DNA of 64,000 bases from a candidate division LCP-89 bacterium (GCA_025774555.1 JALGVT010000004.1:12013-76012), one strand, 5' to 3'; counted from the first letter of the stretch, positions 5,076 through 53,212 are shown. Numbers and translations are program-made. The notes: generated from the letters alone by a model not told the origin.

Positions 5076-6872
5076 ATGAAACGCACCAGGAATTTCAGCA
5101 TAATAGCGCATATTGATCACGGAAAGTCCACTCTGGCAGACCGCCTGCTTGAATTGACAGGGACAATCTCTGCACACCAGTCCCACGGTCAGGTTCTTGA
5201 TGATATGGATCTCGAGCAGGAGCGCGGCATCACGATTAAAGCGCATGCCGTCTCCATGAAATATGTCGATGAGGAGTTGGGAGAATTTACCCTGAACCTG
5301 ATCGATACACCCGGTCATGTCGATTTTACCTATGAAGTCAGCAGGAGCCTGGCTGCATGTGAAGGGGCATTGCTCATCGTTGACGCTACGCAGGGGATCC
5401 AAGCGCAGACTTTATCCAACCTTTATCTCGCCATTGAACACGACCTCCAGATTATACCGATTATCAATAAAATTGATCTGCCATCAGCTCAGATTGAGGA
5501 GACGTCAGCCACATTAGTTGACCTTATCGGCTGCGATCCGGATGAGATTATATGCATCAGCGCTAAAATGGGAGACGGTGTGCCCGAAGTGTTGAAAGCT
5601 ATCGTGAGGATGATCGACCCGCCTTCGGGTGATCCTGAGGCTCCGCTGCGCGCCCTGATTTTCGATTCGATATTCGATACTTATCGCGGCGCTGTTCCCT
5701 ATATCCGCGTATTTGATGGGACCCTCGAACAGGGGATGCCGATCCGCTTTATGAGCAGTAATAAGGGGTATATGGCGGAAGAGGTCGGACACCTAAGCTT
5801 AAAGCGAGTGGTCACAAAGAGTTTGAGCGTCGGTGATGTGGGTTATGTTATTCCCGGCTGCAAGATGATCCGTGAGACCAGAGTGGGGGATACCATTACA
5901 GGCTCTAAGGATCCGGCAAGGGAACCTCTGCCGGGATTCAAATTGATTAAGCCGATGGTGTTCGCCGGGCTATATCCAACTAACACAGAGGATTACGCCG
6001 ACCTGCGCGATTCGCTGGAAAAGCTCGCGCTGAATGACGCTGCCTTCACCTGGGAGCCGGAAACGTCGATTGCTCTGGGATTTGGCTTCCGCTGCGGTTT
6101 CCTGGGTATGCTGCACATGGAAGTTGTTCAGGAGCGGTTAGAACGGGAATACAATCTCGATTTGATCACCACACTGCCCAACGTCGAATACCGGGTTACG
6201 ACTGAGAGTGGAGAGGTGATGAAGATAGATAATCCCGCTAAAATGCCGCTGATCAGCCGCCAGATGATCGTTGAAGAGCCATTCATTAAAACTGAGATTA
6301 TGACACCGACCGATTACATCGGTCCGATCATGAAACTGTCACTCGAACGCCGCGGTGAGTATAAAACGACAGAGTATCTTGATGGGAGTCGTGTGAATAT
6401 CAAGTTCGATTTTCCATTAACAGAGGTCATCTATGATTTCTATGACCGCCTCAAATCGATCTCACGCGGATATGCCTCGTTTGATTACGAATTTGAAGGG
6501 ATGCGCCCGTCCAATATGCAGCGGTTGGACGTCCTGCTCAACGGTGAACCTGTCGATGCGCTTTCCGTTATTGTCCATCAGGATAAAGCCTATGAATGGG
6601 GGCAGCGTTTGACCAGGAAATTGAAAGTAGTGATACCGAGACAGCTTTTCGCGGTAGCTATTCAGGCTGCGGTTGGATCGAAAGTCATTGCCAGAACCAG
6701 CGTCAAAGCTCTACGCAAGAACGTAACGGCGAAATGTTATGGCGGGGACATCACCAGGAAAAGAAAATTACTGGAAAAACAGCGTGAAGGGAAGAAGCGG
6801 ATGAAACAGATCGGAACGGTTGAGATCCCTCAGGAAGCCTTCCTCGCGCTTTTGAAAGTTGACGAAGACTGA
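5076..6872 (+). CDS. lepA: elongation factor 4 (LepA)
   Basis: [34 protein letters not shown] and the LepA-specific C-terminus are present. 598 aa. Confidence 0.95.
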
Positions 6873-6991
6873 AAGAAAAATTATCTTGCACGGCAGCGTC
6901 TTAGTTGTATACAATCCGGCGAATTCTGGAACTGGATAAGCCGTTGTAAAGTTGAAGAGAAGTAAATGCCAATTATTTCAGGTGTCTGATT

Positions 6992-7768
6992 ATGTGGGAA
7001 ACGATTGTAAAGGGTTGGAAAGCTTATCGCGGCTGGGTTAAACGCCGCAAAGAAAAAAGAATAGCGCGTCGCAAAGCGAAGGGATTTGTGCGTGACTGGC
7101 TCGAGTTTATCGTTACGCTGACAATTATGGTATTTTTCATCCGCACTGCCGTTGTTGAAGCCTACAGGATACCGTCAAGTTCCATGGAGGATACACTGCT
7201 CATCGGGGATTTTCTAATGGTTAACAAATTTCTCTACGGAATTCGCACTCCGGACTGGATAGGCATCCCATTCACTGAAATCGGTTTTGACATTCCGCAT
7301 ACACGTACACCCGGACTGCGTGAACCGCGACGCGGCGATGTGATAGTTTTCAAGTATCCCAGAGATCCATCTGTGAATTACATTAAGCGCTGTGTTGGGC
7401 TGCCTGGAGATACCTTGGAAATCAGAGATAAAATAGTGATGATAAACGGTAAACCTTTTCCCGATCCAGCCGAAGCTAAATATACAGATTGGCGCATCGA
7501 ACCAGCCGGGGTAAAAGAGAGGGGTATATATCCCCCGGGCGCTGGGAACCGGGATAATTACGGACCGATTATCATACCTGATGGCAACTACTTTATGATG
7601 GGTGACAACCGGGACAACTCATCGGACAGCCGCTACTGGGGTTTTCTTCCGGAAGATGCTATCTTAGGCAAAGCGTTGATCATCTACTTCTCATGGGATA
7701 AATATGTGCCGTTTTACCGCTTTTATGATTCCATACGCTGGAAGAGAATTGCTTCGCTGATCCATTAA
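6992..7768 (+). CDS. lepB: signal peptidase I
   Basis: A TM segment is followed by IPSSSMEDTL (catalytic Ser box), KRCVGLPGD (Lys box) and GDNRDNSSDSRYWG. Confidence 0.9.
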   Translation: MWETIVKGWKAYRGWVKRRKEKRIARRKAKGFVRDWLEFIVTLTIMVFFIRTAVVEAYRIPSSSMEDTLLIGDFLMVNKFLYGIRTPDWIGIPFTEIGFDIPHTRTPGLREPRRGDVIVFKYPRDPSVNYIKRCVGLPGDTLEIRDKIVMINGKPFPDPAEAKYTDWRIEPAGVKERGIYPPGAGNRDNYGPIIIPDGNYFMMGDNRDNSSDSRYWGFLPEDAILGKALIIYFSWDKYVPFYRFYDSIRWKRIASLIH

Positions 7769-40219: not shown

Positions 40220-41764
<1,545 letters not shown>

Positions 41765-42161: not shown

Positions 42162-42234
42162 GGTGAAGTAGCTCAGATGGGAGCGCGTCCCGACAAGGTC
42201 GGGGAGGTCACCGGTTCGAATCCGGGTTTCATCA
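42162..42234 (+). pseudogene. degenerate third tRNA-like element in the ITS (tRNA-Ala-derived? anticodon loop ACAAGGT)
   Basis: A 73-nt cloverleaf can be drawn. The acceptor is GGTGAAG/TTTCATC with two G-U pairs, and 17 nt of the T-arm region are identical to tRNA-Ala. Against a working tRNA: C at position 33, anticodon AAG, one D-stem mismatch and one T-stem mismatch. Confidence 0.5.
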
Positions 42235-42597
42235 CAAAACGATCAGGTTCAAAAGATCGTGAAAAGTTTCGGAACATCCGTTCCGAACTGTTCTTTGACA
42301 GTCGAAGTCGAGTTCGGGTAGCATAATAAAAAGAATCAGACATCTGTAAAGGTTGAAGGATTTCAGCCAAGTTATAAAGGGCACGAGGTGGATGCCTTGG
42401 CACAAGCAGGCGATGAAGGACGTGGTAAGCTGCGATAAGCCCCGGTGAGGTGCAAACAACCTTAGATCCGAGGATTTCCGAATGGGGAAACCCGGCTCCG
42501 GTAATGCGGAGTCATCACTAAGTGAATACATAGCTTAGTGAGGCGAACGGAGAGAACTGAAACATCTAAGTAACTCCAGGAAGAGAAAGCAATAGCA

Positions 42598-42638
<41 letters not shown>

Positions 42639-42903
42639 TTATGTCGTGTCAAGCTGACGGGCGTTGCGGCATAGGGGTCGTGGGATCGGTCTGGGAGAGC
42701 CGTTAATCTCCCAGGAAGTTACAAAACCATTTGTTAGTCGAGTATTCATGGAAAGGTATAGCCATAGAGGGTGATAGCCCCGTAGGCGAAAACAAATGGA
42801 CTTCCGACCGTCTCCCAAGTACCGCGGGACACGAGGAACCCTGTGGGAATTCAGGAGGACCATCTCCTAAGGCTAAATACTCGCTTGTGACCGATAGTGA
42901 ACC

Positions 42904-42934
<31 letters not shown>

Positions 42935-43529
42935 GGGAGGGGAGTGAAATAGTACCTGAAACCTCGTGCTTACAAGCAGTGGGAGTCCCGACTTGTCGGG
43001 ATGACCGCGTGCCTTTTGCATAATGAGCTGGCGAGTTGCTCGTCCGTAGCAAGGATAAGGCTCTCAGAGCCCGATCCGTAGCGAAAGCAAGTCTGAATAG
43101 GGCGATAAGTTACTGGCGGCAGACGCGAAGCCGGGTGATCTACCCATGGCCAGGTTGAAGCGCAGGTAAAACTGCGTGGAGGACCGAACCAGTTGACGTT
43201 GAAAAGTCATTGGATGAGTTGTGGGTAGGGGTGAAAGGCCAATCAAACCCGGAGATAGCTCGTACTCCCCGAAATAGCTTTAGGGCTAGCCTCGCGTGAT
43301 GTATACCGGAGGTAGAGCACTGAAAGGAATAGGGCCCTCAAAAGGGTACCGACCCCTATCAAACTCCGAATGCCGGATATATTAACGTGGGAGTCAGGCT
43401 ATGGGAGATAAGTTTCATAGCCGAGAGGGAAACAACCCAGATCGACAGCTAAGGTCCCCAAGTGTGACTTAAGTGATAAAGGATGTGAAAGGACCAAGAC
43501 AACCAGGAGGTTGGCTTAGAAGCAGCCAT

Positions 43530-43561
<32 letters not shown>

Positions 43562-44352
43562 AAGTCGTTTTGCGCCGAAAATTGTCGGGACTAAAGTCAC
43601 CACCGAAGCTTCGAGTTGTCCGTAAGGACAGCGGTAGGGGAGCATTCCGTGCACCTGCGAAGGTTATCCGTGAGGATGGCTGGAGGAGACGGAAGAGCAT
43701 ATGCCAGCATGAGTACGCGATAATGAAGGCGAGAAACCTTCACACCGAAAATCCAAGGTTTCCTGAGTAAAGCTAATCTGCTCAGGGTTAGTCGGACCCT
43801 AAGCCGAGGCCGAAGGGCGTAGGCGATGGAAAACGGGTTAAATATTCCCGTACCACCAGGAGTCTGTTTGAACTATGGGGTGACGCAGGAGTGAAAGGTC
43901 AGCCACCGATTGGAAATGGTGGTCTAAGCAGGTAGGCTGAAGGAGCAGGCAAATCCACTCCTTCTTAAGGCCGAGACGCGATAGGGAGACGTAATGTCAT
44001 AAACTGGCCCTAATCATACTGCCGAGAAAAACCTCTATGTGAGGACTTCAGGTGACCGTACCGTAAACCGACACAGGTGGATGAGGAGAGAATCCTAAGG
44101 TGCTCGAGAGAACCGTGGTTAAGGAACTCAGCAAAATGACTCCGTAACTTCGGGAGAAGGAGTGCCCTGGACGGCGATAGAGTTCGCCTCTTTAGCTGTT
44201 CGGGGCCGCAGAGAAACGGCCCAGCCGACTGTTTACTAAAAACACAGGTCTCTGCTAAGTCGTAAGACGATGTATAGGGACTGACACCTGCCCGGTGCCG
44301 GAAGGTTAAGGGGAAGTGTTATCTCCGACTTGTCGGAGAGAAGCTCTGAACT

Positions 44353-45227
<875 letters not shown>

Positions 45228-45483
45228 TCTGGGCGCTGTCTCAACCACGGACTCGGCGAAATTGAATTATCAGTGAAGATGCTGATTACCCGCAATTGGA
45301 CGGAAAGACCCCGTGCACCTTTACTATAGCTTGATATTGGATTGTAGCTCTGCATGTGTAGGATAGGTGGGAGACTTTGAACCATCCACGCCAGTGGGTG
45401 GGGAGTTACCCTTGAAATACCACCCTTGTTTTGTTGGAATCCTAACCTCATGCCGTGAATCCGGCTGAAGGACAGTGTCAGGT

Positions 45484-45515
<32 letters not shown>

Positions 45516-45673
45516 ATGTAACGGAGGCGCCCAAAGGTTCCCTCAGCACGGTCGGTAATCGTGCGTAGAGTGTAAAGGCACAAGGGAGCTTAACTGCGAG
45601 ACATACAGGTCGAGCAGGTAGGAAACTAGGGCTTAGTGATCCGGCGGTAGAGAATGGAATTGCCGTCGCTCAT

Positions 45674-45776
<103 letters not shown>

Positions 45777-45982
45777 TAGGAGGTCCCAAGGGTTTGGCTG
45801 TTCGCCAATTAAAGCGGCACGCGAGCTGGGTTTAAAACGTCGTGAGACAGTTTGGTCCCTATCCATTGTGGGCGCAGGTATCTTGAGGAGTGCTGCTCTT
45901 AGTACGAGAGGACCGGAGTGGACGAACCTCTGGTGTACCAGTTGTCGCGCCAGCGGCATGGCTGGGTAGCTAAGTTCGGAAG

Positions 45983-46015
<33 letters not shown>

Positions 46016-46312
46016 CCCTCCAAGATAAGGATACCCATTCCTGCTTCGGCAGGACTGAAGACCCCTCATAGACTATGAGGTTGATAGGTCACAGGTGTAA
46101 AGGCAGTAATGTCAAAGCCGAGTGATACTAATAGGTCGTGAGACTTGGCATAATTAATTTTTCAACTGATACAGGTTGCTGATCCGCTAACCGAACTCGA
46201 TTTCGACTGTCATAAGAACAAAAATATTGTGGAGGTCAGACATTCCTGTCTGACAGGCAAGTCCGAGGGACTCCTTCGGAGAATGCCTATCCTCCGTTTG
46301 ATATGACTGATA

Positions 46313-46431
<119 letters not shown>

Positions 46432-46441
46432 TTTTTAATTT

Positions 46442-46470
46442 GCCCTTCTGAAAAGAGGGGCTTTTTATTT
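46442..46470 (+). terminator. rrn operon intrinsic terminator
   Basis: GCCCTTCT-GAAA-AGAGGGGC (8-bp stem with a GAAA loop) is followed by TTTTTATTT. Confidence 0.7.
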
Positions 46471-46490
46471 GGGTGTAGGAGAGTAGGTCG
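46471..46490 (+). repeat. duplicated fragment of the 5S 3' end
   Basis: GGGTGTAGGAGAGTAGGTCG matches 5S 46403-46422 (GGGTGTGGGAGAGTAGGTCG) at 19 of 20 positions. Confidence 0.7.
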
Positions 46491-47043: not shown

Positions 47044-47145
47044 ATGTGGAAGAAAGGAGAAAGAGACAAACGGTATGGGGAATCTTTATAATAAACCCGG
47101 ATGGGAAGCCAGCCGGGCCACCATCCCGCTAATATCAGGTAGGAA

Positions 47146-47910
47146 ATGAGCTTTTTAATCATTCCATGCTATATAAAGAATAAATGGGACCTCCATTATC
47201 TTAACAGGCTCCTCGCCAGCGTCGAGAGCCAAACCTTGACATTCGAGCAAGTCTATCTAGTAGATGATGCAAGTCCTTTGCATTATACATTGGAATTTAG
47301 CTTCATAGAGTACATCAGACTCCCAAAGAATGGCGGCCCCGCAAAGGCGCGAAACGTAGGCATTGAGAGAGCCCTTGAAAGAGATGCCCAACATCTGTTC
47401 TTCACCGACCACGACTGCATCCTCGACAGTTCCTGGAACCAGCACATGACTCATTTCCTTCAGAGTACTTCATTCGGTGCTGTTGGGGGCTTGACATTAT
47501 CCTGGGGCACCACACTGTTTGACTACTACCATGACATCAACGGCACCCTATCCGGGAAATGGCTCTTGCCGGACAGGAAAGAGCTTTGGTACATGCCGTC
47601 CTTGAACTTCGGCATGAAAGGCCAAGTCGCAAGGGAGTTCATCTTTGACGAGAGATTCCCTACCGCCGCCGGAGAAGATGTAGACCTCTGCCTTCGGATG
47701 AGGAGTAAATATAAAATCGGCTTCTGCGTCAAAGCGAAGCTCTGGCATGACTATGGTTATAAGAGCACCCTGACTGGATTTATACGATTTATAAGACTTT
47801 TTATGAAATACAAGAGCTCAAGCGCAACACTATATGAGGGCCATACGGTATTGCTATGGGACTCATCAGAATCCATCTATCTGGGAAATGCGTATGAGCC
47901 TAATCTATAG
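47146..47910 (+). CDS. family 2 glycosyltransferase
   Basis: YLVDDASP..., PKNGGPAKARNVGI and FFTDHDC (a DxD-like motif) on a GT-A fold. 254 aa. Confidence 0.8.
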   Translation: MSFLIIPCYIKNKWDLHYLNRLLASVESQTLTFEQVYLVDDASPLHYTLEFSFIEYIRLPKNGGPAKARNVGIERALERDAQHLFFTDHDCILDSSWNQHMTHFLQSTSFGAVGGLTLSWGTTLFDYYHDINGTLSGKWLLPDRKELWYMPSLNFGMKGQVAREFIFDERFPTAAGEDVDLCLRMRSKYKIGFCVKAKLWHDYGYKSTLTGFIRFIRLFMKYKSSSATLYEGHTVLLWDSSESIYLGNAYEPNL

Positions 47911-48907
47911 GAGAAAGGCGAATCAGCCAAGCCTGACTCATGTCATCCATGACTATTATGGGGAGATCATCCCATTCGCGAAGAGAATTGATCAGAAAAT
48001 TGTCGCACTCCCGCTGCTGCTCCTTAAAACCATTGAGTGGAGCATTTATCGCTGGTACAAGACGCCAATCAGACGGTTTTACGGAGTGAAAGGCAATGAG
48101 CTCATCTACATGATTACGCGCCGCTGCTGTGATAAGTGCTCAAAATGTGGCATTTGGAAGATCCCGGAGCCTGATAACCAGCACCTGCCAGTTTCTGAAT
48201 TTATCAATTGCCTTAACCAGATACATGAGAACCTGTATCAGGTGACCCTTACTGGCGGTGAGCCGCTTCTGTATCTGGAAGATGTGCTCCTTATAGGCGA
48301 AGAATGTAAGAAATTGAATGTCCCAATGCTCGTTGTCACCAATGGTGTGCTGCTCACTAAGCGTTTCCTTCAAGCATACGCCAAGCTTGAGCACATCCTC
48401 GTGATATCAGTAGATACTATAAATACAGCGAAATGGGTGAACTTTCGGGGCAGAAACCACTTCGAGCTTGTGATGGGGAATATAATGCTCGCTCGGTCTT
48501 CCCTAGGTAATAAGCTGCGGATCCAGTCCGTCCTAGCAAAAGAAACACAGGACGATATTCCACTAGTTAAGAATTTTTGCGATGAGCACTCCATCCCTCA
48601 CATTATCCAGCCCTATATGGATTTTGGAGGCTGCTGGCATAGCACCACCAGCAAAGCCAAAGACACCGGAGTCGCCTGCGCCGCACGGAAGAATATCTGC
48701 ATCTATCCCAATGGAGACGTAGTCAAGTGCTTTGACCACCATCGGATTCCTTTAGCAAAAGAACCACTCGGGAACATCAAAAAGGAGGACATCATCACGA
48801 TCCTCTGCAAGAGACGCTCAACTGAAGTGTCGAAGATCATGAAGACCTGTAACTATCCATGCAAACAATTATCATGCAACATCCCAATTGACATCTGTAA
48901 CTCATGA
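47888..48907 (+). CDS. radical SAM protein with SPASM/twitch-like C-terminal Cys-rich domain
   Basis: It has the CX3CX2C motif (CCDKCSKC) and TLTGGEPLL. The C-terminal region has C-X6-CIYPNGDVVKC and CNYPCKQLSC. The start is ambiguous (47834, 47888 or 47894), and all options overlap the GT2 gene. Confidence 0.8.
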   Translation: MRMSLIYRRKANQPSLTHVIHDYYGEIIPFAKRIDQKIVALPLLLLKTIEWSIYRWYKTPIRRFYGVKGNELIYMITRRCCDKCSKCGIWKIPEPDNQHLPVSEFINCLNQIHENLYQVTLTGGEPLLYLEDVLLIGEECKKLNVPMLVVTNGVLLTKRFLQAYAKLEHILVISVDTINTAKWVNFRGRNHFELVMGNIMLARSSLGNKLRIQSVLAKETQDDIPLVKNFCDEHSIPHIIQPYMDFGGCWHSTTSKAKDTGVACAARKNICIYPNGDVVKCFDHHRIPLAKEPLGNIKKEDIITILCKRRSTEVSKIMKTCNYPCKQLSCNIPIDICNS

Positions 48908-49485
48908 CTCGAACAAATCCAGACGTTATCATCATACGGGGTGCTCCCGGTTCAGGAAAGACACAGGCATCGAAGTGCCTTGCCACCCACTTCCAAAAGA
49001 GTGTCCGTATAGAAGTCGATACACTGAGGGCTATGGTCATTTCTGTTGAGTGGTCCAACCAGGATGAGCACATCAATATCCTATCCCTCACAATAGGTCT
49101 TGTTATCGGCTTTCACCGACTTGGTTACGGTCCGATCATTGTGGTCGATACATTCAGCGGAAATAAGCTCTCAAAGTTCATTGCAGATATCAGCTTAATG
49201 AACAACAACCTCGAAATACGTTCATTCGCGCTTGTAACCGCTCCTGAGGTCCTCAGAGTCAGGGTTGAGGACAGACCAACAGGCCAGTTCAAGGATCTCG
49301 ATATCTGCATAAAATTGAATTCCGACGTTATCAAACACCTTCAACCTCTCGAACAAATCATTGACAACACCGAACTAACGCCAGTGGAAACGGTTGAAGT
49401 CATATTGGAGCAACACCTTGGTTTTTCCAACGCCCTTCCTGCAAGAGAACGGTCAAGTTTGGGCGTTCGGGAGTTTAAAAGGTAA
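48904..49485 (+). CDS. P-loop NTPase / kinase-like protein (AAA_33-like)
   Basis: Walker A IIIRGAPGSGKT and a Walker B-like IIVVDTF are present. The ATG overlaps the rSAM stop (ATGA). Confidence 0.7.
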   Translation: MTRTNPDVIIIRGAPGSGKTQASKCLATHFQKSVRIEVDTLRAMVISVEWSNQDEHINILSLTIGLVIGFHRLGYGPIIVVDTFSGNKLSKFIADISLMNNNLEIRSFALVTAPEVLRVRVEDRPTGQFKDLDICIKLNSDVIKHLQPLEQIIDNTELTPVETVEVILEQHLGFSNALPARERSSLGVREFKR

Positions 49486-49576
49486 ATAGGTTGGTTCAGC
49501 CTAGCACAATTGTCTTTGTAGTCGAGTCCCTGTACTCGACGATTACCCCGGCGGGTGGCATGCTTTTAGTTTCCCC

Positions 49577-49694
49577 GTTGCGTTAGGTCCTTAACGCAGC
49601 ATAGACCTGACGCTAAAACGCATGTAAATAAAGATGTCAGGTCACATCCGTCAGCCGATGGATACCGAAGGCACAGGCAAGACCTGACACAACA
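49577..49694 (+). repeat. 119-nt structured palindromic repeat, copy 1
   Basis: GTTGCGTTAGGTC...GACCTGAC...GTCAGGTC...ATCCGTCAGCCGATGGAT...GACCTGACACAACA. About 90% identical to copy 2. Confidence 0.85.
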
Positions 49695-49721
49695 AATAAC
49701 TTATTCAGAAAGGAGCTTATC

Positions 49722-49859
49722 ATGGGTAAAGGCAAAGGTGGAGGTAAGAGCGGCAGCGGCGGTTCCAAAGATGAAAAATCCAATCCCCAATGGCCGAGTA
49801 AAAAAGATGGAAAGTCCTCCGGTGATAAGAGGGGAAATAATCCTCCCAAAGGCAAGTAA
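49722..49859 (+). CDS. 45-aa Lys/Gly/Ser-rich hydrophilic peptide (hypothetical)
   Basis: The ATG is preceded by AAAGGAG at a 6-nt spacing. It reads MGKGKGGGKSGSGGSKDEKSNPQWPSKKDGKSSGDKRGNNPPKGK. It is below the ORF-track cutoff, and its low complexity makes a coding call uncertain. Confidence 0.45.
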   Translation: MGKGKGGGKSGSGGSKDEKSNPQWPSKKDGKSSGDKRGNNPPKGK

Positions 49860-49894
49860 TCATGTGGTACATCTGCCCTGGAGCCAGATTTCAT

Positions 49895-50012
49895 GTTGCG
49901 TCAGCTACTTAGCGCAGCGTTGACCTGACGCTAAAACGCATGTAAATAAAGATGGCAGGTCACATCCATCAGCCGACGGATACCGAAGGTACAGGCAAGA
50001 CCTGACACAACA
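49895..50012 (+). repeat. 119-nt structured palindromic repeat, copy 2
   Basis: Same architecture and orientation as copy 1. Confidence 0.85.
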
Positions 50013-50159
50013 GTGAATGCCTTACACTGGTGCCCCATAGTTCTACTGTGGGAAAGTTATCCGAACCATGCAAACTTCTTCCACTGAACCTCGAACCCCA
50101 AATCTTCAAACCTGATGTTGTGTTAAGCCAAGTTTAATGGCTCATTCTCAAAATTACGG

Positions 50160-51974: not shown

Positions 51975-51995
51975 GTACCCAGTAGATACATTCCC

Positions 51996-52114
51996 GTTGC
52001 GTCGGGTCCTTAGTGCAACGGAGACCTGACGCCCAAAACACGCACAAATAAAGGTGTCAGGTCACATCTGTCAGCAGACGGATACCGAAGGCACAGGCAA
52101 GACCTGACACAACA
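51996..52114 (+). repeat. 119-nt structured palindromic repeat, copy 3
   Basis: GTTGCGTCGGGTC...GACCTGAC...GTCAGGTC...ATCTGTCAGCAGACGGAT...GACCTGACACAACA. Confidence 0.85.
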
Positions 52115-52167
52115 GATAACGATCCCCCTTATATTAACCACTAATCGCAATCGTACACAGTTTCCAC

Positions 52168-52959: not shown

Positions 52960-52969
52960 GTCTATTCCT

Positions 52970-53088
52970 GTTGCGTCAGGTCTTGAGCGCAGCGGAGACC
53001 TGATGCCTAAAACACGCACAAATAAAGGTGTCAGATGATATCCGTCAGCCGACGGATACCGAAGGCACAGGCAAGGCCTGACACAACA
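52970..53088 (+). repeat. 119-nt structured palindromic repeat, copy 4 (central octamers degenerate)
   Basis: GTTGCGTCAGGTC...GACCTGAT...GTCAGATG...ATCCGTCAGCCGACGGAT...GGCCTGACACAACA. Confidence 0.85.
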
Positions 53089-53212
53089 GATAATTTGAAT
53101 CCTCCGAAGAAAATTCGGGGGCTTTTTATTTTGGAGGGACGCGTATCATCGTTTGTACAGGTACTTGTGTATTTGCAGATAAGAAAAATATTGGCAGATT
53201 TTATTAAACTGC

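Follow-up and report, generated by a model that had tools for sequence, protein, structure and literature searches.

A three-gene glycosyltransferase, radical SAM and kinase cassette shared by Bacteria and Archaea, and its possible place in sugar or nucleotide chemistry

Downstream of the ribosomal RNA (rrn) operon in a 64,000-nucleotide stretch of DNA from a candidate division LCP-89 bacterium (GCA_025774555.1 JALGVT010000004.1:12013-76012; the window, for us, is this whole stretch) lie three overlapping genes, which encode a GT2-family glycosyltransferase, a radical S-adenosylmethionine (SAM) enzyme and a P-loop kinase, and it is this cassette, or trio, that concerns us here. The genes and the signals around them, in window coordinates, are as follows.

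47146–47910, plus strand: GT2-family (GT-A fold) glycosyltransferase gene, 254 aa; it opens the cassette and ends in a TAG stop at 47908–47910.
47894–48907, plus strand: radical SAM gene, 337 aa, in an open reading frame (ORF) that is open from 47834.
48904–49485, plus strand: P-loop hydroxyl kinase gene of the AAA_33, Zeta and polynucleotide kinase (PNK)-like branch, 193 aa.
47063–47092, plus strand: sigma-70-like promoter match, weak and by consensus only, 54 nt 5′ of the GT2 start.
46442–46461, plus strand: terminator-like hairpin with a T-run, from a consensus scan, just 3′ of the 5S rRNA gene.
49543–49558, plus strand: weak terminator-like hairpin, from a consensus scan only, 58 nt past the kinase stop.

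An earlier, sequence-only reading of this DNA had proposed that the three enzyme genes are translationally coupled, and in this it was right, the overlaps it described being confirmed: the GT2 stop codon falls within the radical SAM ORF, and the ATGA at 48904–48907 is common to the radical SAM stop and the kinase start. The radical SAM start is most likely the ATG at 47894 (MSLIYR...), which is found in the database gene call and in all homologues, and which produces a 17-nt overlap with the GT2 gene. On its 3′ side the operon probably stops at the hairpin at 49543–49558. On the other side, the promoter match agrees with the consensus at 10 of 12 positions, and such sites are no commoner in the region than in shuffled sequence. 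The spacer between the 5S and GT2 genes runs to 714 nt and holds a terminator-like hairpin and further hairpins; taking the hairpin at 46442–46461 as the upstream boundary, the cassette is probably outside the rrn transcript. The description of the trio as lying directly downstream of an rrn operon is therefore right for this window and wrong as a general feature, as rRNA is found near no other trio locus. Indeed, a functional tie to the rrn operon was rejected, both because no rRNA homology is seen near the trio elsewhere and because terminator-like hairpins stand between the two.

All three proteins can be placed in their enzyme classes with some assurance. The first scores 52.7 bits against Glycos_transf_2 (PF00535; cut-off 23.3, E 6e-14), and the motifs DDxSP, NGGPAxARN, D88-H-D90, E177-D178 and WHD are invariant among 20 homologues of 71% mean identity, so that the Pfam score, the DXD motif (D88-H-D90) and the invariant acidic residues E177-D178 together make it a GT2 enzyme. 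No transmembrane (TM) segment is predicted in it, and we take it to be soluble. Its best named hidden Markov model (HMM) is MftF, at 61 bits against a cut-off of 280, followed by weaker NCBIfam matches to EpsD, HpsN, a rhamnosyltransferase and TuaG, and a profile search of the PDB finds weak N-terminal GT2 matches only. The kinase matches Zeta_toxin, AAA_33 and AAA_18, all P-loop families of Pfam, and has an invariant Walker A motif (G13-x4-G18-K19-(S/T)), E37-x-D39-x-x-R42, D82-TFSG and R120/R124; thus Walker A, the catalytic aspartate D39, the Walker B aspartate D82, the lid arginines and the fold are all those of a P-loop hydroxyl kinase. Its best PDB profile match is BH3686 (2bdt), then Pnkp1, TmrD and PSTK. 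The AlphaFold2 model is confident (predicted local distance difference test, pLDDT, 87), and Foldseek aligns it to 2bdt, gluconate kinases, chloramphenicol phosphotransferase and PNK, with TM-scores of about 0.6–0.8, and also to PFK-2 and the tunicamycin-resistance protein TmrD. This points to a place among the hydroxyl-phosphorylating P-loop kinases rather than the nucleoside monophosphate (NMP) kinases, within which we leave the substrate subfamily broad.

The radical SAM protein belongs to its superfamily by score (Radical_SAM, PF04055, 56 bits against a cut-off of 29.5, E 6e-15) and by motif, with C78/C82/C85 (CX3CX2C) and G121-G122-E123-P124 (GGEP) invariant. Towards its C-terminus the SPASM model of Pfam scores 20.9 bits, just below the 21.5-bit cut-off. 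C262, C279, C319, C323 and C328 are invariant in 24 homologues and in a sister family described below, and a nearly invariant sixth C-terminal cysteine, C269, is kept within the trio family only. The motif C-x11-G-x4-C fits the β-hairpin of twitch and SPASM domains, and the BtrN twitch domain is the only PDB sequence that aligns with this part of the protein. With five invariant cysteines and one nearly so, as against the seven or eight of a full SPASM domain, the domain looks the more twitch-like of the two. At the other end, AlphaFold2 renders an N-terminal extension (about residues 1–66) as two long helices with no β-sheet, in a model whose mean pLDDT is 64 and whose C-terminal domain is poorly modelled. 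The CX3CX2C motif, a domain resembling the auxiliary-cluster domains of SPASM/twitch proteins, and some 70 aa ahead of the cluster motif had all been seen in this protein by the sequence-only reading, and all are borne out. Among the closest structures, SuiB is the nominal top by profile and by Foldseek (3.8e-10 and 6e-12), with MoaA, viperins, SkfB, BlsE and anSME scoring essentially equal to it, and this likeness is one of superfamily level only. Assignment from structure was consequently given up, as Foldseek fails to separate peptide maturases from enzymes of nucleotides and sugars. Since the invariant motifs are intact in each protein, all three look catalytically competent.

The strongest argument that these genes belong together comes from their distribution. 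A radical SAM query against 5.8 billion proteins returned hundreds of homologues of 336–338 aa at 63–85% identity, and a filter-free profile search over 1.84 billion cluster representatives found an isolated family, consisting of one full-length cluster at the 50% level and a divergent relative (P0242), beyond which the scores fall away, first to a sister family of shorter proteins and after that to generic radical SAM enzymes. When 185,579 species, each represented by a single genome, were scanned with two peptide patterns, which makes the locus count a lower bound, at least 65 trio loci came to light in about 60 genomes from at least seven phyla and both prokaryotic domains. The hosts are Bacteroidota, Planctomycetota (Phycisphaerales), Verrucomicrobiota, Kiritimatiellales, Myxococcota, Desulfovibrionaceae, Chlorobiota, a Dolichospermum metagenome-assembled genome (MAG) and several archaea, those of the Methanoperedens type among them. 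By ORF and BLAST analysis all three genes are present wherever the locus is not truncated at the edge of a contig. The order GT2 (254–261 aa), radical SAM, kinase, with overlapping or abutting genes, recurs in Anaeromyxobacter oryzae, Candidatus Methanoperedens, a Bacteroidales MAG and long metagenome contigs, and the divergent P0242 also has an intact trio in the same order. The sequence-only reading had allowed that the trio might never be syntenic elsewhere, and this is contradicted by every complete locus.

In addition, pairwise identities correlate over some 1,700 locus pairs (radical SAM with GT2, r = 0.70; radical SAM with kinase, r = 0.64), from which we conclude that the three proteins evolve as one unit. 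The enzymes are 50–75% identical between archaea and several bacterial phyla, and their clades mostly follow phylum, with exceptions that include a Prevotellaceae trio grouping with Methanoperedens (75%) and a Methanobacteriota MAG with Bacteroidetes (77%). DNA homology between this locus and the others runs from the GT2 ATG to inside the kinase gene, and the sole match in the flanks of the window is a weak 144-nt hit (974–1117, to L053). A fourth conserved gene was sought beside the trio and not found, the only recurrent additions being a Methyltransf_24 insert (4 loci) and integrases (4–5 loci). No model in NCBIfam, Pfam, PHROG or PADLOC fits the trio beyond superfamily level, and the full-text literature searched holds no description of it or of the sister cassette below, which agrees with the earlier judgement that the combination is no recognised pathway. 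Taken together, the high identity, the constant co-travel and the want of a family match suggest a discrete biochemical capability with a universal substrate.

Two loci deserve separate mention. The trios of L041, a Bacteroidetes MAG, and L042, the Dolichospermum MAG, share 98–100% protein identity, which means that the transfer was very recent or else that a contig was mis-binned. In L001, the chromosome of Anaeromyxobacter oryzae Red232 and the one complete genome from a cultured strain to turn up among the trio loci, the GT2 gene (6259–7004) is frameshifted after GEDVDL and annotated in two pieces, of 207 aa and 41 aa; the cassette may therefore be inactive in this strain. Among other cultured organisms, Carboxylicivirga marina has at least the radical SAM gene and Turneriella parva at least the kinase gene.

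The trio has a relative in a sister cassette, in which a radical SAM protein (about 275 aa), a radical SAM/SPASM protein (about 310 aa) and a GT2 enzyme (about 325–348 aa) are joined, in three of four loci, by a short-chain dehydrogenase/reductase (SDR) of the nucleoside diphosphate (NDP)-sugar 4,6-dehydratase/epimerase type; a DUF429 protein takes the place of the SDR in L079. The loci are listed below.

L077/L078, 6001–9694: sister cassette.
L079, 6001–8764: sister cassette.
L080, 6001–9654: sister cassette.
L083, 7001–10724: sister cassette.

The first of its radical SAM enzymes belongs to a family of more than 1,000 members, comes closest to the trio family of all proteins beyond it and has the same five C-terminal cysteines, and the GT2 enzyme of the sister cassette is a specific homologue of the one in the window (38% identity, hhalign 2e-38); NCBIfam matches in the sister cassette all fall below cut-offs. 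Like the trio it is self-contained and found in variable contexts, and unlike the trio it lacks both the N-terminal hairpin and the kinase and has a second radical SAM/SPASM enzyme. The shared radical SAM protein and the specific GT2 homology imply that the pair is an ancestral module whose partners vary, with a sugar-nucleotide enzyme in one case and a hydroxyl kinase in the other. A gene with an FGE-sulfatase domain lies just upstream of the sister cassette in L083 and further upstream in L077/L078. The trio itself has a four-gene variant, in which a class I SAM methyltransferase of about 190 aa (Methyltransf_24, PF13578, 3e-19), for which NCBIfam has no match, stands between the radical SAM and kinase genes in one Methanoperedens MAG and three Bacteroidota MAGs.

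L016, 7032–7595: Methyltransf_24 insert.
L039, 7023–7601: Methyltransf_24 insert.
L049, 7014–7631: Methyltransf_24 insert.
L067, 4693–5316: Methyltransf_24 insert.

Could the cassette mature a peptide? The sequence-only reading had called the trio a peptide- or glycan-modification module, and had pointed to a small ORF nearby as a candidate substrate for a lysine–tryptophan cross-link.

49722–49859, plus strand: 45-aa ORF, rich in Lys, Gly and Ser and free of Cys, with a good Shine–Dalgarno sequence, called in the source annotation.

In such a system for a ribosomally synthesised and post-translationally modified peptide (RiPP), the radical SAM enzyme would cross-link a ribosomal peptide, be it this 45-aa product or a precursor encoded elsewhere, and the GT2 enzyme and kinase would decorate it. 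There are respectable reasons for entertaining the idea: SuiB, the nominal best match by sequence profile and by Foldseek, is the lysine–tryptophan cyclase of streptide, the radical SAM protein carries a SPASM-like domain, GT2 enzymes include peptide S- and O-glycosyltransferases, MftF (the best named GT2 model) belongs to the mycofactocin RiPP pathway, and a good ribosome-binding site precedes the small ORF, which is annotated as a gene. Against this, the 45-aa ORF, which sits 236 nt 3′ of the kinase between two repeat copies, forms a singleton cluster at 90% identity, has no family match in Pfam, NCBIfam, PADLOC or PHROG scans and has no homologue in the approximately 60 other trio loci. Flanking ORFs of at least 30 aa were clustered, and ORFs of 18–100 aa within 800 nt of the cassette were separately compared by short-peptide BLAST, and no conserved small ORF emerged within 800 nt of the trio across about 60 loci. 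Nor does the radical SAM protein carry a RiPP recognition element (RRE): there is no PqqD match at E ≤ 0.1, and the modelled extension consists of two helices. The HMMs of RiPP maturases all score 25–40 bits against cut-offs of 300–650 (for example WgkB 39 against 650, DynA 39 against 450, StsB 30 against 625 and PqqE 26 against 381), the C-terminal cysteines number five or six in place of the seven or eight of a full SPASM domain, and no peptidase, protease or exporter is linked to the trio across the loci examined.

We reject the peptide link on the want of a co-occurring ORF, of an RRE, of convincing maturase scores and of a peptidase or exporter. A RiPP maturation role for the cassette is thus very unlikely, and we would give it only the slimmest of chances among the explanations considered here; the lack of co-occurrence, which the sequence-only reading had itself named as a refutation, largely refutes it, and we take the 45-aa ORF to be unrelated to the cassette. 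What stands of the original proposal, in part, is the modification module; its peptide half falls, together with the lysine–tryptophan substrate. There is a lesson here, namely that a SPASM-like radical SAM enzyme beside a small peptide with lysine and tryptophan is insufficient for a RiPP call.

The repeats that bracket the 45-aa ORF, and which recur twice in unrelated intergenic regions, a further point against the peptide, are four copies of a structured element of about 125 nt (82–92% identity, nested inverted repeats) that is unrelated to the cassette.

49574–49700 and 49890–50013: repeat copies bracketing the 45-aa ORF.
51993–52120 and 52965–53096: repeat copies between unrelated genes.

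Its consensus folds at −35.6 kcal/mol, with no covariation and no Rfam match, and it looks like an element of this genome akin to repetitive extragenic palindromes (REP) or miniature inverted-repeat transposable elements (MITE).

What surrounds the trio elsewhere is varied. Taken over 55 loci, the 150 proteins encoded closest to the trio represent 144 Pfam families, with many housekeeping ones among them, and the only recurrent neighbours are phage integrases (4 proteins), type I methylase domains (2 proteins) and a few PADLOC hits (type I/II methyltransferases, AbiE, mad2, PDC-S01 and PDC-S11). Individual loci show neighbours of a more mobile or defensive cast: IS21, WYL and PolB in one; GmrSD in another; resolvase, ParB, ScoMcrA-HNH and ISL3; integrase, RadC and DUF932; HEPN/NTase; and restriction–modification. 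Of 57 loci, 5 have a tRNA gene no more than 400 nt away from the cassette and 6 have one within about 720 nt; these six make up half of the 12 tRNAs found in flanks of about 6 kb. They are tRNAs for Arg, Cys, Ser and Met, 260–720 nt from the cassette ends, at the following positions.

L009, 8797–8873: tRNA gene near the cassette.
L034, 1574–1645: tRNA gene near the cassette.
L057, 6893–6980: tRNA gene near the cassette.
L063, 4779–4854: tRNA gene near the cassette.
L064, 533–619: tRNA gene near the cassette.
L043, 4457–4533: tRNA gene near the cassette.

In L009 an integrase follows the tRNA beside the cassette. This adjacency suggests island-type insertion beside stable-RNA genes, parallel to the position next to the rrn operon in the window. 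All in all the cassette is horizontally mobile accessory cargo that has passed between remote bacterial and archaeal lineages, and a defence role is possible for it. A recent insertion was also looked for in base composition and gave no signal (GC 0.465 for the trio against 0.48 for the window). Words from the region are shared with only two metagenome DNA runs, one from a hydrothermal vent and one marine, a few in each. Beside the cassette in three Bacteroidota loci there is a 27-nt direct repeat pair (GTTCTCCGCA...TTTGTGGTNAA, 37-nt spacing), 5′ of the GT2 gene in one locus and 3′ of the kinase gene in two, which could be a repeat peculiar to the lineage or could mark a site of recombination.

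L029, 5097–5160: 27-nt direct repeat pair.
L041, 2503–2566: 27-nt direct repeat pair.
L043, 8255–8318: 27-nt direct repeat pair.

That the cassette lies close to stable-RNA genes in this window and in several further loci also bears on the main rival explanation, one that we take seriously, in which it hypermodifies nucleic acid. The product would be a glycosylated, radical-derived and phosphorylated mark on a tRNA, rRNA or DNA common to Bacteria and Archaea, with the N-terminal hairpin of the radical SAM enzyme binding the polynucleotide and the PNK-like kinase phosphorylating a ribose or base-linked hydroxyl. The hairpin is well suited to such a part: the median net charge of the extension across 61 homologues is +9.6, it contains invariant Trp, Tyr and Arg residues, and it is these cationic 66 residues that render the whole enzyme basic (median pI 9.2 in the same 61), the sister radical SAM protein, which lacks the extension, being neutral. 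Moreover, the kinase combines E-x-D-x-x-R with lid arginines, aligns with Pnkp1 and PSTK and has a polynucleotide kinase as its best PHROG match, and a universal target would account for the 65–75% identity seen across domains. Yet Pfam and NCBIfam scans find no recognised nucleic-acid-binding domain, neither a restriction nor a reader partner is conserved, the structures most like the kinase are those of small-molecule kinases, and the sister cassette suggests NDP-sugar chemistry while lacking the cationic domain. The adjacent tRNAs, too, differ in identity, which fits integration sites better than substrates. We therefore regard a nucleic-acid target as doubtful, if well worth keeping in view.

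The same cationic, aromatic helices could also be read as an interfacial membrane anchor, and this brings in a second rival, in which the target is an envelope glycan or lipid-linked sugar and the cassette works somewhat as in serotype conversion: the GT2 enzyme would add a sugar to an acceptor that is lipid-linked or near the membrane, the radical SAM enzyme modify it and the kinase phosphorylate it, to give an altered surface, for example at a phage receptor. Most GT2 enzymes do act in polysaccharide synthesis, the weaker matches of this one (EpsD, HpsN, rhamnosyltransferase, TuaG) are of that kind, the sister cassette has its NDP-sugar dehydratase/epimerase, and the small mobile format is like that of the gtr cassettes of prophages. 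The trio, though, is without TM segments and without flippase or polymerase genes, and it lies outside polysaccharide loci. The envelopes of Methanoperedens, Planctomycetota and Bacteroidota offer radically different acceptors, and still the GT2 enzymes are 65–76% identical; moreover, the N-terminal hairpin is conserved too strictly for a generic membrane anchor. An envelope substrate is, to our minds, improbable.

We are left favouring, tentatively and at something short of even confidence, an explanation in which the three enzymes work in sequence on a ubiquitous metabolite of nucleoside, nucleotide or sugar type to give a glycosylated, radical-modified and phosphorylated product. The GT2 enzyme would move a sugar from an NDP-sugar to a common acceptor of nucleoside, nucleotide or sugar type. 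The twitch-type radical SAM enzyme would then take a hydrogen from the sugar or nucleoside and so bring about an oxidation, dehydration or rearrangement, assisted by its auxiliary iron–sulphur cluster, as in the chemistry of BtrN, MoaA, BlsE and viperin. The P-loop kinase would phosphorylate a hydroxyl of the substrate or product, whether for activation or for protection of the producer, and the outcome would be a modified, phosphorylated glycoside or nucleotide, made by accessory cargo with a possible role in conflict, be it antiviral or antibiotic. Substrate class, order of steps and biological role are what we infer. With the same reserve, we picture a self-contained, horizontally transferred cassette that acts on common metabolites and not on a dedicated peptide. 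It is the NDP-sugar enzyme of the sister cassette, the Methyltransf_24 insert, the fold of the kinase and the twitch character of the radical SAM enzyme that incline us to sugar or nucleotide chemistry, and the presence of MoaA, viperins, BlsE and BtrN among the nearest structures of the last was counted in its favour.

Several observations weigh against this explanation. The functional links are all at the level of distant superfamilies (E of about 1e-10), and the peptide maturases SuiB, SkfB and anSME match the radical SAM enzyme equally well. The cationic, aromatic-rich hairpin (+10 net charge) and the PNK-like D-x-x-R would fit a nucleic-acid substrate just as readily, and the lack of a linked exporter or immunity gene argues against a secreted antibiotic. 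As regards conflict, the defence-island signal is weak and the nearest neighbours are mostly unrelated, and viral carriage is nearly nil, with one match in 2.9 million viral contigs of IMG/VR; phage and plasmid records were also searched for the trio and contained none, and carriage by phages or plasmids was rejected on these two results. The trio was likewise tried as a known defence system and set aside, PADLOC giving only sub-threshold matches to the core of prokaryotic viperin (pVip).

A few other features of the window can be recorded here, all of them in its rrn operon.

40220–41758: 16S rRNA gene, followed by tRNA-Ile and tRNA-Ala.
42365–46152: 23S rRNA gene.
46315–46431: 5S rRNA gene.

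The 23S gene is some 860 nt longer than its Rfam model and has within it a LAGLIDADG_1 ORF at 44514–45008 (PF00961, 1.4e-17) and a group I intron match at 44774–45062 (RF00028, 43.7 bits, E 1.6e-9, with a gathering score of 50), so that the gene probably houses an intron that carries a homing endonuclease. At 42162–42235 a third tRNA (Leu-AAG) is called by ARAGORN, in the 16S–23S spacer after tRNA-Ile and tRNA-Ala; its Rfam score is 31.7 bits (E 0.011), and the call may be degenerate or false. The 3′ end of the 5S gene is repeated 68 nt downstream as a 20-nt direct repeat (46403–46422 and 46471–46490, 95% identity), which may be the remnant of a partial 5S duplication.

How, finally, does the trio compare with systems that are already understood? 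The streptide-type maturases (SuiB/StrB and WgkB) also have a radical SAM enzyme with a SPASM-like domain, and differ in that the trio is without RRE, precursor peptide, peptidase and exporter. Nor does the trio fit mycofactocin, as the MftF match is under its cut-off, MftC is not among the top radical SAM matches and the other Mft genes are not nearby. BtrN, MoaA and BlsE have features in common with the radical SAM enzyme of the trio, through the C-x(n)-G-x4-C β-hairpin and because MoaA and BlsE are among the best matches to its core; here, however, identity is about 15–19%, no HMM cut-off is reached, the trio consists of only three genes without a surrounding cluster, and its cysteine pattern, C-x16-C ... 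C-x3-C-x4-C, exactly matches neither BtrN nor MoaA. The twitch and SPASM pathways for small molecules and nucleoside antibiotics also pair a glycosyltransferase with kinases.

It is the pVip enzymes with an adjacent nucleotide kinase that the trio recalls most strongly, since these too combine a radical SAM enzyme and a P-loop kinase in a small unit that occurs sporadically and spreads horizontally, since the radical SAM core finds its best PADLOC and NCBIfam matches in the pVip models, and since viperin structures are among its top folds. The differences are just as plain. NF038283 reaches 48 bits against a cut-off of 180 and covers residues 93–200 of a 357-aa query, and the PADLOC pVip match (53 bits) is to the core only; viperins have neither the auxiliary-cluster domain nor the cationic hairpin, both of which the trio enzyme possesses; the trio kinase is gluconate kinase/PNK-like and not an NMP kinase; the GT2 enzyme is obligatory in the trio; and its association with defence islands looks weak. 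This comparison nevertheless frames a bolder proposal, which we think unlikely, that the trio is an undescribed, cross-domain conflict system resembling viperin, making a toxic glycosylated or phosphorylated nucleotide analogue from a common nucleotide or NDP-sugar, or else that it lays down a new glycosyl-phospho mark on tRNA, rRNA or DNA. Were the conflict version true, the analogue would poison replication, transcription or translation in invaders or competitors. To solve the cassette would be to gain new radical SAM chemistry of sugars or nucleotides, and perhaps also a novel nucleotide analogue with antiviral or antibiotic action, or a nucleic-acid modification of a new kind. The pattern seen here is much like that of the viperin–kinase pair before its chemistry was known, and, by analogy, we would place the trio among the small modification cassettes centred on radical SAM enzymes, with that pair as its closest analogue.

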